From NCBI RefSeq assembly GCF_003334785.1, contig NZ_QOWV01000001.1: DNA of 64,000 nt; one strand, written 5' to 3'. Shown here piece by piece: positions 24,250 to 57,005 of this stretch. Below the pieces are notes generated by a model. It did no database searches. It was not told the origin of the DNA and saw only the letters and a list, made by a program, of their open reading frames with translations. Positions within the stretch are counted from its first letter, which is position 1, and each line of letters starts with the position of its first letter. The position numbers and the translations under genes were made by a program. The DNA is from Escherichia coli. GTDB lineage: Bacteria; Pseudomonadota; Gammaproteobacteria; Enterobacterales; Enterobacteriaceae.

Positions 24250-24465
<216 letters not shown>

Positions 24466-24473
24466 AATTGCTC

Positions 24474-25757
24474 TTACTTCTTCGCCTCTGCAACCACTTT
24501 ACTACCCACGCCGCGGTTATTGTATTCCCACATGCGGTTGTAGTTAGTGTCATTCAGATTGCGCTGTATTTCGTCGTTATCATCTACGCTGCCGGTATTA
24601 CCCGCAAACGGACGATTAGAGATCACCGCATCGGCCCACGGTTTAGCCGTGTTAAAACCTTCGTTGATGGCGCTATCACGGATCACCACCTGACCGTTGG
24701 TATTGGCATCAACATCCAGCGAGCGGCCCAGTTGCGCCACACCATCACCGAAAGCATTGAAACGGCTGTTTACGGCGAGGAAACCGTAGTAAATGTTGGA
24801 CAGCGTAGCCGGTGCAAACACATACGCTTCTTGCTGAGTACGTGAGTTCACCACGCGGAATTCGGTGTTATCGAACACCACTGCGCCGCGACCAGAAACG
24901 ATATCCACATCCCCTTCAATGTAGCTGTTGGTCACCAGCGTACGCGGCTGACGATTTGTTTCCAGACGGTTCTGCACACCGCTGTTGGTGACAAAGAAGG
25001 TGTTCTGACGACCGAGAATGTTAACGTTGTTAATCTGTACCTGGTCACCATCAGTACGCAGTGCCACCGCCGGATGGTTACCTGCATCTACGCTATCGCC
25101 CAGCGTGTTTTCGATGGTCAGATTTTGCAGTTGCAGGCCATTGTTTTGTGACCAGAAGACCGCAGAGCAGAGAACACCGATACTGTCGCTGCGTTTGCTC
25201 TGGCAGCTATCGTACATATACCACGCTGGTTTACCTGGCATATATTTGCCGCGCGGGTTGACGTCGTGACGCCAGTCGGCAGGGCTCATGCCACCATCAA
25301 GGGAAAGCCCAATCTTCACATCAATCGGTTTTTCACCTGTACCGTACAGAGTAATTCCACCCGGAGCGGCAGGGACATATACCGTTCCCTGATACTCACC
25401 AGGCATCACGGCAATATACTGGCGCTTGTTGGTACGCTTGATAATTGCCGCATCTACCGCCGCCTGAATCGTGGTATGCGTTACACCTTGAGTGCCCGCC
25501 GGGCCGACAACAAAGTCAGGTTGCGCAGGCAGGGTAATCGGGGAAGGATTCCACGCTGCAGCACCTGGTGTCAGGGATGCAAAATAGTGTTGAGCATCGA
25601 AATTCTGCGCTTCTTTTGCCGACAGAATCGGGCGAGAAGAGGTACCAGGCGCGGTTTGATCAGAAGGACGTTGATCGGGCGGGGTTGAGCTACAGGCGGT
25701 CAGCGTCACGCCAAAAGCCAATGCCAGCGCCAGACGGGAAACTGAAAATGTGTTCAC
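24474..25757 (-). CDS. ybhC: Outer-membrane lipoprotein, pectinesterase-like fold (putative acyl-CoA thioesterase)
   Basis: 427-aa ORF with a lipoprotein signal (LTAC). Confidence 0.85.
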   Translation of the reverse strand: MNTFSVSRLALALAFGVTLTACSSTPPDQRPSDQTAPGTSSRPILSAKEAQNFDAQHYFASLTPGAAAWNPSPITLPAQPDFVVGPAGTQGVTHTTIQAAVDAAIIKRTNKRQYIAVMPGEYQGTVYVPAAPGGITLYGTGEKPIDVKIGLSLDGGMSPADWRHDVNPRGKYMPGKPAWYMYDSCQSKRSDSIGVLCSAVFWSQNNGLQLQNLTIENTLGDSVDAGNHPAVALRTDGDQVQINNVNILGRQNTFFVTNSGVQNRLETNRQPRTLVTNSYIEGDVDIVSGRGAVVFDNTEFRVVNSRTQQEAYVFAPATLSNIYYGFLAVNSRFNAFGDGVAQLGRSLDVDANTNGQVVIRDSAINEGFNTAKPWADAVISNRPFAGNTGSVDDNDEIQRNLNDTNYNRMWEYNNRGVGSKVVAEAKK

Positions 25758-25908
25758 AGGTTGCTCCGGGCTATGAAATAGAAAAATGAATCCGTTGAAG
25801 CCTGCTTTTTTATACTAACTTGAGCGAAACGGGAAGGTAAAAAGACAAAAAGTTGTTTTTAATACCTTTAAGTGATACCAGATGGCATTGCGCCATCTGG
25901 CAGAGTGA

Positions 25909-26385
25909 TTAACTAAACATCGCAGTAATCGAGGCGCTTGCCAGAGAGTGGAAATGAACGTTAAACCCGACCATCGCGCCGCTGGCACCTTCATCGACAT
26001 CAATACGTTCTATATCCAGCGCGTGAACGGTAAAAATGTAGCGATGAGTTTCGCCTTTCGGCGGTGCTGCGCCATCGTACCCGGTTTTACCAAAGTCGGT
26101 ACGCGTCTGCAAAACGCCGTCTGGCATTGCTACCAGACCAGAGCCAAACCCTTGCGGTAATACGCGGGTATCAGCGGGTAAGTTAACAACTACCCAGTGC
26201 CACCAGCCGGAGCCGGTTGGCGCATCCGGGTCGTAGCAGGTGACAACAAAACTTTTCGTTCCCGCAGGAACATCATCCCACGCCAGATGCGGTGAAATAT
26301 TATCGCCATCGTAACCCATGCCGTTAAAGACATGACGATGCGGCAATTTATCGCCATCGCGCAGATCGTTACTGATGAGTTTCAT
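25909..26385 (-). CDS. ybhB: PEBP/RKIP-family protein
   Basis: 158-aa ORF immediately downstream of bioA on the same strand. Confidence 0.85.
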   Translation of the reverse strand: MKLISNDLRDGDKLPHRHVFNGMGYDGDNISPHLAWDDVPAGTKSFVVTCYDPDAPTGSGWWHWVVVNLPADTRVLPQGFGSGLVAMPDGVLQTRTDFGKTGYDGAAPPKGETHRYIFTVHALDIERIDVDEGASGAMVGFNVHFHSLASASITAMFS

Positions 26386-26443
26386 GAACCCTCCTTTCTT
26401 GTTTGCAGAAAGTGTAGCCAGAAACCCTCACGCGGACTTCTCG

Positions 26444-27733
26444 TTATTGGCAAAAAAATGTTTCATCCTGTACCGCGCGGTTAACCGCTGCGGTCAGACG
26501 CTGCAACTGTTGCGGGAGAATAATATAGGGCGGCATCAGGTAAATCAGTTTGCCAAAAGGCCGGATCCAGACACCCTGTTCGACAAAGAATTTTTGCAGC
26601 GCCGCCATATTCACCGGATGAGTGGTTTCGACCACGCCAATGGCCCCCAGTACGCGCACATCGGCAACCATTTCGGCATCACGGGCGGGGGCAAGTTGCT
26701 CGCGCAGCTGTACTTCAATATCCGCCACCTGTTGCTGCCAGTCGCCAGATTCGAGAATCGCCAGGCTGGCGTTTGCTGCCGCGCAGGCCAGCGGATTGCC
26801 CATAAAAGTTGGCCCATGCATAAAGCAACCGGCTTCACCGTTACTGATGGTTTCTGCAACCTCGCGCGTGGTGAGTGTGGCGGAAAGGGTCATTGTGCCG
26901 CCGGTTAAGGCTTTACCGAGGCACAAAATGTCCGGCGCGATTTCTGCATGTTCACAGGCAAACAGTTTCCCGGTACGACCAAATCCAGTGGCGATCTCGT
27001 CGGCAATCAGCAAGATACCTTCGCGATCGCATATTTTGCGGATTCGTTTTAACCATTCCGGATGGTACATGCGCATCCCGCCTGCGCCCTGGACAATCGG
27101 CTCAATGATCACCGCCGCGATTTCATGACGATGCGCCGCCATCAGGCGGGCAAAGCCCACCATATCGCGCTCATCCCATTCGCCATCCATGCGGCTTTGC
27201 GGGGCGGGAGCAAACAGGTTTTCTGGCAGGTAGCCTTTCCACAGACTGTGCATTGAGTTATCCGGATCGCACACCGACATCGCGCCAAAGGTATCGCCAT
27301 GATAACCATTGCGGAAGGTCAGAAAACGCTGGCGCGCTTCGCCTTTGGCTTGCCAGTACTGCAACGCCATTTTCATCGCCACTTCCACCGCTACGGAACC
27401 GGAGTCCGCGAGAAAAACGCACTCCAGCGGTTGCGGCGTCATCGCCACCAGTTTGCGGCACAGCTCAATGGCTGGCGCATGGGTGATACCGCCAAACATC
27501 ACATGCGACATGGCATCAATTTGCGACTTCATCGCCGCATTAAGCTGCGGGTGATTGTAGCCGTGGATCGCCGCCCACCAGGACGACATACCGTCAACCA
27601 GGCGTCTGCCGTCAGACAAAATCAGCTCGCAACCTTCGGCGCTCACCACCGGATAAACCGGCAGAGGGGAGGTCATGGATGTGTATGGGTGCCAGATATG
27701 GCGTTGGTCAAAGGCAAGATCGTCCGTTGTCAT
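26444..27733 (-). CDS. bioA: Adenosylmethionine-8-amino-7-oxononanoate aminotransferase
   Basis: Start placed at [20 protein letters not shown]; the ORF-track 37-aa extension, which would cover the bio operator, was rejected; 429 aa. Confidence 0.93.
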
Positions 27734-27738
27734 AATCG

Positions 27739-27778
27739 ACTTGTAAACCAAATTGAAAAGATTTAGGTTTACAAGTCT
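27739..27778. promoter_or_regulatory. bio operator (BirA binding site) with divergent bio promoters
   Basis: 40-bp imperfect palindrome ttgtaaacc...ggtttacaa between bioA and bioB. Confidence 0.8.
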
Positions 27779-27819
27779 ACACCGAATTAACAACAAAAAA
27801 CACGTTTTGGAGAAGCCCC

Positions 27820-28860
27820 ATGGCTCACCGCCCACGCTGGACATTGTCGCAAGTCACAGAATTATTTGAAAAACCGTTGCTGGATCTGCTGTTTGAAGCG
27901 CAGCAGGTGCATCGCCAGCATTTCGATCCTCGTCAGGTGCAGGTCAGCACGTTGCTGTCGATTAAGACCGGAGCTTGTCCGGAAGATTGCAAATACTGCC
28001 CGCAAAGCTCGCGCTACAAAACCGGGCTGGAAGCCGAGCGGTTGATGGAAGTTGAACAGGTGCTGGAGTCGGCGCGCAAAGCGAAAGCGGCAGGATCGAC
28101 GCGCTTCTGTATGGGCGCGGCGTGGAAGAATCCCCACGAACGCGATATGCCGTACCTGGAACAAATGGTGCAGGGGGTAAAAGCGATGGGGCTGGAGGCG
28201 TGTATGACGCTGGGCACGTTGAGTGAATCTCAGGCGCAGCGCCTCGCGAACGCCGGGCTGGATTACTACAACCACAACCTGGACACCTCGCCGGAGTTTT
28301 ACGGCAATATCATCACCACACGCACTTATCAGGAACGCCTCGATACGCTGGAAAAAGTGCGCGATGCCGGGATCAAAGTCTGTTCTGGCGGCATTGTGGG
28401 CTTAGGCGAAACGGTAAAAGATCGCGCCGGATTATTGCTGCAACTGGCAAACCTGCCGACGCCGCCGGAAAGCGTGCCAATCAACATGCTGGTGAAGGTG
28501 AAAGGCACGCCGCTTGCCGATAACGATGATGTCGATGCCTTTGATTTTATTCGCACCATTGCGGTCGCGCGGATCATGATGCCAACCTCTTACGTGCGCC
28601 TTTCTGCCGGACGCGAGCAGATGAACGAACAGACTCAGGCGATGTGCTTTATGGCAGGCGCAAACTCGATTTTCTACGGTTGCAAACTGCTGACCACGCC
28701 GAATCCGGAAGAAGATAAAGACCTGCAACTGTTCCGCAAACTGGGGCTAAATCCGCAGCAAACTGCCGTGCTGGCAGGGGATAACGAACAACAGCAACGT
28801 CTTGAACAGGCGCTGATGACCCCGGACACCGACGAATATTACAACGCGGCAGCATTATGA
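27820..28860 (+). CDS. bioB: Biotin synthase (radical SAM)
   Basis: 346-aa ORF with CPEDCKYC. Confidence 0.95.
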
Positions 28861-56665: not shown

Positions 56666-56932
56666 TTAACGTAACTGGCTGTCTTTCGAACCTCTGCGAT
56701 TATATCCTGTATAAGCTGGTTTTTGTAAATCTTTCTCCTGCTGACAATGAATACATAAGCGCACGCCAGGAATGGCTTCCCGACGGGCCTGCGGGATGGG
56801 GGCACCGCACTCTTCACATTCATCCAGGCTTTCGCCGCGCGGAATTTCACCCCGAGCGCGGGCAATCGCATCTTCAATTGTACTGTTGATCTGTTCGTTG
56901 ACGGCGTCATCGTTAGCCCAACCGGATGCCAT
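56666..56932 (-). CDS. ybiI: DksA/TraR-family C4 zinc-finger protein
   Basis: 88-aa ORF with CEECGAPIP...CIHCQ. Confidence 0.85.
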   Translation of the reverse strand: MASGWANDDAVNEQINSTIEDAIARARGEIPRGESLDECEECGAPIPQARREAIPGVRLCIHCQQEKDLQKPAYTGYNRRGSKDSQLR

Positions 56933-57005
56933 ATCGACCTCCCCATATCAATACTTGTACAGTTAAGTGTAGCTAATCCAGGGACGAACTCGGGCAGTTC
57001 AAGCA

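Follow-up and report, generated by a model that had tools for sequence, protein, structure and literature searches.

The analyses described here lead us to propose that ybhB, the gene immediately downstream of bioA in Escherichia coli, probably responds to two inputs: read-through from the BirA-repressed bioA promoter, and a promoter of its own, of the sigma-S type, which, judged from its sequence, appears to lie in the short spacer between the two genes. The model also holds that the adjacency of ybhB and bioA is positional, and that chance in gene order most likely explains the link of ybhB to biotin.

The span on which we focus, 25909-27778, covers ybhB, the spacer, bioA, and the operator; it lies within a 64-kb window, by which we mean the whole stretch of E. 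coli DNA that was analyzed. Over 2.2 kb the sequence matches E. coli K-12 MG1655 with 100% identity. Of 5426 complete E. coli genomes, 5417 carry this region at 95% identity or better with its genes in the same order; the annotations there read ybhC, ybhB ("kinase inhibitor"), bioA, and bioB. The features that matter for the argument are the following.

25876-25902, minus strand: G+C-rich hairpin of 11 bp, 7 nt past the ybhB stop codon (folding).
25909-26385, minus strand: ybhB coding sequence, a cytoplasmic PEBP/RKIP-family protein of 158 aa (open reading frame listing and RefSeq annotation of the identical MG1655 record, structure and family matches).
26386-26443, minus strand: bioA-ybhB spacer, 58 bp, without a terminator or significant RNA structure (terminator scan and folding).
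26390-26396, minus strand: Shine-Dalgarno sequence AAGGAGG, 4 nt ahead of the ybhB ATG (read off the sequence).
26410-26418, minus strand: putative RpoS-type -10 element for ybhB, GCTACACTT (exact match; TACACT at 26416-26411, -13C at 26417).
26444-27733, minus strand: bioA coding sequence, adenosylmethionine--8-amino-7-oxononanoate transaminase, 429 aa (open reading frame listing and RefSeq annotation of the identical MG1655 record).
27738-27777, no strand assigned: 40-bp inverted repeat, presumed bioO, between the divergent bioA and bioB (arms 27738-27752 and 27763-27777, 93% complementary).

The start of ybhC follows another 151 bp downstream of ybhB. A 466-aa open reading frame at bioA in the mechanical list was discarded, being merely an upstream in-frame extension of the 429-aa gene. 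On the basis of what is known of the bio operon in E. coli, we identify the inverted repeat at 27738-27777 as bioO, the BirA operator, which overlaps the leftward bioA promoter. The description of a leftward bioA-orfX unit reportedly dates to the 1988 sequence of the operon. The arrangement of bioA and ybhB is already known from the literature, in which the leftward unit is given as bioA plus orfX (review, PMC11089781).

Evidence for a second input comes from the spacer itself. We compared 13 Enterobacteriaceae bioA-ybhB spacers, including that of Salmonella bongori; they range from 36 to 70 bp and are largely unalignable. Nevertheless, the hexamer TACACT occurs in all 13, usually in the form GCTACACTT, with CTACACT (which includes -13C) in 12 and GCTACACT in 11; the second-ranked non-overlapping hexamer, found in 7 of the 13, is the Shine-Dalgarno sequence AAGGAG. 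The conserved motif ends 24-37 nt before the ybhB ATG. In E. coli, GCTACACTT at 26410-26418 matches the RpoS -10 consensus CTAYACT (bioRxiv 10.1101/082537) together with -13C. Sigma-S-selective features are described as -13C, -8C, -6T, and a weak or absent -35 (Peano et al., PMC4447067); the element carries -13C, -8C, and -6T, and has no recognizable -35. The RpoS-type motif is missing from Pantoea spacers.

On its own, a CTAYACT match is no less frequent in this window than chance would have it: we counted seven, against 5.75 expected. Because of this, the weight of the argument falls on conservation across species, on published Salmonella data, and on two kinds of control, namely ybiI and loci with inserted genes. 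GCTACACTT has only one other copy in the 64 kb, at 56965-56973 (minus strand). This copy directly follows ybiX, which runs in the same direction as ybiI, and stands 33 nt ahead of the ybiI ATG; ybiI has been shown by qRT-PCR to be rpoS dependent (Peano et al., PMC4447067). Where genes have been inserted between bioA and ybhB, the motif stands at the head of the inserted block: locus L015 has CTACACT about 40 nt before a DJ-1-like gene, and locus L019 has CTATGCT about 45 nt before a curA-like gene. A sigma-70 promoter for ybhB was also considered and rejected, as the sole minus-strand match, at 26327-26299, falls within the coding region of ybhB, and matches overall are as numerous as expected from shuffles.

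The motif itself has been noticed before. A comparative study described a non-palindromic TACACTT upstream of ybhB that is common to Enterobacteriaceae, "hypothesized to represent a modified -10"; it made no sigma-S assignment and regarded the significance as unclear (PMC8793217). Reading the known TACACTT as an RpoS -10, and tying it to published Salmonella rpoS data, is a modest addition, and it would account for a conserved sequence that the earlier study left uninterpreted (PMC8793217).

It is also conceivable, though improbable in our judgment, that GCTACACTT is not a promoter but acts at the RNA level, where the bioA-ybhB mRNA might be processed or be bound by an sRNA or protein, or else is the target of some DNA-binding factor, and that the rpoS effect seen in Salmonella is indirect. 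The absence of a -35 would suit this explanation, as would the fact that those who first reported TACACTT left its meaning open (PMC8793217). Nevertheless, RpoS promoters often lack a -35 (PMC4447067), and the motif fits the RpoS -10 at every selective position. Its distance of 24-37 nt from the ATG is appropriate for a promoter, an identical 9-mer precedes the rpoS-dependent ybiI, and the spacer has no significant RNA structure. We prefer to regard the motif as the putative -10 of a ybhB promoter.

Published expression data bear directly on this proposal. After 18 hr in LB, Salmonella ATCC14028 ybhB (STM14_0918) mRNA stood at 88 in the wild type and 19 in ΔrpoS (PMC5437024). This corresponds to a fold change of 0.212 in the mutant (4.7-fold down; log2 -2.23; adjusted p 5.4e-6), and YbhB protein fell as well, from an LFQ of about 31.2 to about 28.2 (log2 -3.0, or 8-fold down; significant at FDR 0.001) (PMC5437024). 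The protein was identified from nine peptides with 76% coverage, and in the table of detected proteins the ybhB row is followed at once by uvrB (STM14_0926), with consecutive ids 524 and 525; none of the products of the loci between the two was detected in this LB proteome (PMC5437024). Judged by gene order, those intervening loci are the bio genes. The detection of YbhB without Bio proteins implies that, in Salmonella grown in LB to stationary phase, YbhB is abundant while the bio operon is repressed. The rpoS dependence in Salmonella could be indirect. The sequence-only reading had named an independent ybhB promoter without biotin responsiveness as the finding that would count against it, and as regards an independent promoter the evidence now largely points to one: an RpoS-type -10 is retained in 13 of 13 spacers, and in Salmonella both the mRNA and the protein depend on rpoS.

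Other reports are consistent with a role in stress. In E. coli, ybhB is among nine genes induced by ampicillin, by ofloxacin, and by restriction-mediated death; rpsV, osmC, yciEF, yjbJ, and dsrB were induced with it, and the authors relate them to sigma-S and stress responses (PMC2685091). A YbhB/YbcL homolog belongs to the EcfG general-stress regulon of Sphingomonas melonis (PMC6599016). No ybhB entry was found in the supplements of Romero 2014, searched by gene name, b-number, and coordinate, or in those of Peano 2015. An iModulon search returned a Bacillus subtilis NadR/BirA example alone, which is uninformative.

To ask how far the bio linkage extends, we examined the best 80 of 591 confirmed relatives, drawn from the first 600 pattern matches with one genome per species; this is a sample and not a census. 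Each homolog locus was searched by tblastn with E. coli BioA, BioB, BioF, BioD, and YbhC. Among these 80, bioA lies upstream on the same strand in all 14 orthologs of at least 73% identity, which come from Escherichia, Citrobacter, Kluyvera, Enterobacter, Pseudocitrobacter, Superficieibacter, Mangrovibacter, Pantoea, Erwinia, Acerihabitans, and two MAGs. Two loci that were examined separately, one from Pantoea and one from another enterobacterium, have the same bioA-ybhB order. By contrast, no bio gene lies within 4 kb of any of the 66 homologs in the sample with 63% identity or less (Acetobacteraceae, Pseudomonas, Burkholderiales, Rhizobiales, actinomycetes, and others). Since all 14 close orthologs are linked and none of the 66 distant ones is, bioA-ybhB is a conserved pair in this clade only: it does not reach beyond Enterobacteriaceae, Erwiniaceae, and their near kin, and linkage of the family with bio genes does not extend across distant taxa. 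The genes downstream of ybhB vary, and include ybhC, hut genes, and pgl. A 2022 comparative review found that ybhB-family genes are seldom in conserved operons (PMC8793217). The closest representatives, P0130 and P0147 (59-68% identity), were rejected as a distinct clade, being frameshift-ridden long-read assemblies of ordinary enterobacterial loci.

Two kinds of exception within the clade are informative. Pantoea sp. Nvir (L017), which lives as a symbiont in a stinkbug, retains only pieces of bioD and bioA from a decayed bio operon, beside uvrB, and yet its ybhB, also beside uvrB, is intact as a 158-codon open reading frame; ybhB and the bio operon have not been lost together. In three lineages (L015, L019, and L020), same-strand genes are inserted between bioA and ybhB. 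All three have a 226-aa DJ-1/PfpI-like protein, and L019 (Acerihabitans) has in addition a CurA-type NADPH enone reductase (NF058644, 564 bits); the insertions thus consist of stress or detoxification genes.

These observations weigh on a second alternative, that essentially all ybhB expression comes from its place as the distal gene on the BirA-repressed bioA transcript, and that YbhB has a function within the biotin regulon, perhaps as a protein that binds an intermediate of the pathway. We consider this unlikely, and somewhat more so than a non-promoter role for the motif. Three observations agree with it: the 58-bp gap has no terminator, a leftward unit of bioA and orfX has been described (PMC11089781), and all 14 orthologs of at least 73% identity, among the best 80 of 591 relatives, lie downstream of bioA on the same strand. 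It is difficult to reconcile, however, with a YbhB that is abundant and rpoS dependent in LB-grown Salmonella in which Bio proteins are undetected (PMC5437024), or with the retention of a promoter-like element in the spacer. Moreover, the bio linkage is missing in all 66 distant homologs among the same 80, ybhB survives the loss of the bio operon in Pantoea sp. Nvir, and unrelated genes separate bioA from ybhB in three lineages. The functional tie between ybhB and biotin that the sequence-only reading had suggested is not supported by this evidence.

The first of the two proposed inputs is read-through. The sequence-only reading had placed ybhB 58 bp behind bioA with no visible terminator, and on both counts we agree: the open reading frame listing and the RefSeq annotation put the gap at exactly 58 bp (26386-26443), a pattern scan of it found no terminator-like site, and the folding of its RNA is on a par with that of shuffles (z = -0.26). 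Over 25700-27900, Rfam yielded a single match, a sub-threshold DicF inside bioA, which at 19.6 bits against a gathering score of 48 was rejected as chance. ybhB therefore sits in a unit headed by bioO, behind a terminator-free gap, and some BirA/biotin-controlled read-through is to be expected because the spacer has no terminator; read-through from the BirA-controlled bioA promoter is plausible. Downstream of ybhB, in contrast to the spacer, the RNA is strongly structured: the hairpin at 25876-25902 has a folding energy of -19.4 kcal/mol (z = -4.4), and 0 of 200 shuffles fold as well. It is followed by a weak U-tract (UAUCACUU), and the terminator scan missed it because the T-run is short. This hairpin is probably the 3' end, or a stabilizer, of the leftward transcript or transcripts.

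The opposite extreme, that ybhB is transcribed from its own promoter only, because bioA transcripts end or are cleaved earlier (for example by Rho or nucleases) and BirA is without influence, seems to us just as doubtful as a purely biotin-regulated ybhB. It would fit the uncoupled expression of the two genes in LB-grown Salmonella. It would also fit the Pantoea spacers, in which a short GC hairpin and then GUUUUG come right after bioA, along with a TAAGAT or CATGAT element; as the hairpin region overall folds no better than shuffles (z = -0.70), this terminator-like structure is a suggestive hint. Against it, the E. coli spacer has no terminator-like structure, orfX is assigned to the leftward unit in the literature (PMC11089781), and a 58-nt untranslated gap before a strong Shine-Dalgarno sequence would be a poor Rho substrate.

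We therefore return to the model with two inputs. Through the first, transcripts from the leftward, BirA-repressed bioA promoter would cross the terminator-less spacer into ybhB and end at or near the hairpin past it, so that scarcity of biotin would raise part of ybhB expression. The co-repression of ybhB by BirA and biotin, as the sequence-only reading had it, thus holds in one respect, in that read-through is plausible, given the missing terminator and a review that lists orfX in the leftward unit; it falls short in another, as the conserved RpoS-type -10 in 13 of 13 spacers and the rpoS dependence in Salmonella suggest that ybhB is not a mere passenger of the bio transcript. Through the second input, ybhB would be transcribed from its own promoter within the spacer, with GCTACACTT as an RpoS (sigma-S)-type -10 that includes -13C and has no recognizable -35. 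The predicted start, at about 26404, would leave some 19 nt of leader ahead of the ATG, and this leader would carry a strong Shine-Dalgarno sequence. If the same regulation operates in E. coli as in Salmonella, this second input would make YbhB a stationary-phase or general-stress protein, made at times when the bio genes are off. Its place next to bioA would then be a lineage-specific positional association and would not point to any part in making biotin.

What YbhB does is a separate question. That the product belongs to the PEBP/RKIP family, as had been proposed, is borne out by its matches to NCBIfam NF007609 (an equivalog; 343.5 bits, cutoff 226) and TIGR00481 (the YbhB/YbcL subfamily; 196.2 bits, cutoff 57.75), and by its sequence identity to PDB entries 1FJJ_A (E = 4.5e-110) and 1VI3_A (E = 1.1e-109), which have the PEBP fold. 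PF01161 is precomputed for every close homolog, and the prophage paralog YbcL is PDB 1FUX. The family is large, with 12,556 clusters at 50% identity (E <= 1e-3). Across an alignment of 20 sequences, D52, P53, and D54 never vary and H114 hardly does; the E. coli protein carries the pocket motifs YDPDAP ... GETHRY, and with them the DPDxP and GxHR of the anion pocket. YbhB has no N-terminal signal peptide, unlike the commoner YbcL-type homologs of about 180 aa, and is therefore cytoplasmic. We know of no kinase target or ligand for bacterial PEBP proteins, and the label "kinase inhibitor" is a name given by homology transfer.

One speculative possibility would give the position behind bioA a meaning. 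In the BioA reaction SAM donates the amino group, and what is left of it after deamination decomposes to the reactive enone 2-oxo-3-butenoate. Depending on the lineage, the genes directly downstream of bioA are ybhB alone; a DJ-1/PfpI-like gene and ybhB; or genes for a CurA-like NADPH enone reductase, a DJ-1-like protein, and YbhB. These genes might form a damage-control module for the electrophilic by-product of BioA, with the PEBP protein as a small-molecule enzyme or binder, a role that has been proposed for the family (PMC8793217). We regard this as a long shot, less probable than any of the readings above. If it were true, dual control by BirA read-through and sigma-S would make sense, and the position behind bioA would not be accidental.

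The consequences for biotin biology are small, since both the gene order and the leftward unit have been in the literature for a long time and the structure of YbhB is solved. The two-input model would, however, allow a cleaner annotation: ybhB would count as a probable general-stress gene under sigma-S, served by a conserved promoter inside the unit (GCTACACTT) and by BirA-controlled read-through, and not as a biotin-pathway gene. It would also redirect the search for the function of bacterial cytoplasmic PEBP proteins toward stationary phase and electrophile stress, and away from biotin intermediates.

Finally, each part of this picture can be set beside a known system. As a protein, YbhB matches the YbhB/YbcL subfamily of PEBP/RKIP proteins (PF01161, TIGR00481; 1FJJ, 1VI3, 1FUX) over its full length and above curated cutoffs, with both pocket motifs and a solved structure; it differs from the YbcL-type homologs in that the signal peptide is theirs and is missing from YbhB. 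The putative internal promoter resembles that of ybiI behind ybiX: both genes have GCTACACTT about 30 nt before the ATG, immediately past the upstream stop codon, with no clear -35. The rpoS dependence of ybiI is experimental, whereas for ybhB the direct evidence comes from Salmonella. The known leftward unit of the E. coli bio operon (bioA-orfX/ybhB, under BirA and bioO) is present as described, with its operator of 40 bp, its divergent promoters, and the 158-codon open reading frame behind bioA, and there is zero difference in the DNA; what is added here is the conserved promoter-like element of the distal open reading frame and the restriction of its bio linkage to one clade.

Within the window, the putative sigma-S (RpoS) -10 9-mer of the bioA-ybhB spacer, GCTACACTT, has a single further copy.

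Window 56965-56973, minus strand: second copy of GCTACACTT, upstream of the ORF at 56666-56932 (minus strand)

That ORF is ybiI, an 88-aa DksA-type zinc-finger gene; the motif lies 33 nt 5' of its ATG, right behind the stop of a co-directional ybiX-like gene. Published work reports rpoS dependence for ybiI (PMC4447067). This copy was the internal control for the interpretation of the motif as a sigma-S -10.

At three of the loci that carry ybhB homologues in other genomes, bioA and ybhB are separated by inserted genes (coordinates here and below are local to each locus).

L015 3309-3989: inserted block, Enterobacteriaceae MAG
L019 2194-3971: inserted block, Acerihabitans arboris
L020 3306-3986: inserted block, Erwinia endophytica

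In all three, a DJ-1/PfpI-like gene (226 aa) lies between them on the same strand and ends 11-30 bp before ybhB, the copies sharing about 70-74% mutual identity. The Acerihabitans insertion additionally includes a CurA-type NADPH enone reductase, and a sigma-S-like -10 stands at the head of the block in L015 and L019.

Two further loci show decay or apparent disruption around bioA.

L017 2333-4477: decayed bio operon with intact ybhB, Pantoea sp. Nvir, a Nezara viridula symbiont
L089 1588-3411: bioA-ybhB region, Salmonella bongori LR134137.1

All that is left of the bio operon between uvrB and ybhB in the Pantoea symbiont is fragments of bioD and bioA; ybhB itself is an intact ORF of 158 codons, 74% identical to that of E. 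coli, in AT-rich surroundings and with TTGACA upstream. In the S. bongori assembly, two ORFs are called for bioA and a truncated product of 136 aa for ybhB, which suggests frameshifts, pseudogenes or assembly errors; GGCTACACTT is still present in the bioA-ybhB spacer.

Two features lie on the other side of ybhB.

Window 25804-25818, plus strand: phage lambda attB core, an exact copy of GCTTTTTTATACTAA
Window 24264-24458: REP/BIME-like repeat cluster between ybhJ and ybhC

The attB core falls inside the 151-bp ybhB-ybhC gap (0 matches across 100 shuffles), consistent with the published position of the lambda prophage between these genes (PMC5615136); the order is ybhB, then the G+C-rich hairpin behind its stop, then attB. 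The cluster, in which two copies of a 65-nt repeat (97% identical, 93 nt apart) interleave with two of a 35-nt repeat, consists of ordinary E. coli extragenic repeats.

In 12 of 65 non-enteric loci (L031, L036, L037, L043, L052-L055, L058, L060, L066 and L084), the PEBP homologue has as its direct neighbour, in the same orientation, a gene for an AraC-family regulator about 270 aa long, the family being assigned by eye from the C-terminal HTH sequence. Hosts include Rhizobium, Rhodobacteraceae, Pseudomonas, Chitinibacter and Marinomonas. The pairing is recurrent and bears no relation to biotin.

In Sphingomonas melonis, a YbhB/YbcL-family gene is listed among those dependent on the general stress sigma factor EcfG (log2 -3.2) and has a candidate EcfG promoter (PMC6599016). 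A parallel is the apparent dependence of ybhB on RpoS in enterobacteria.
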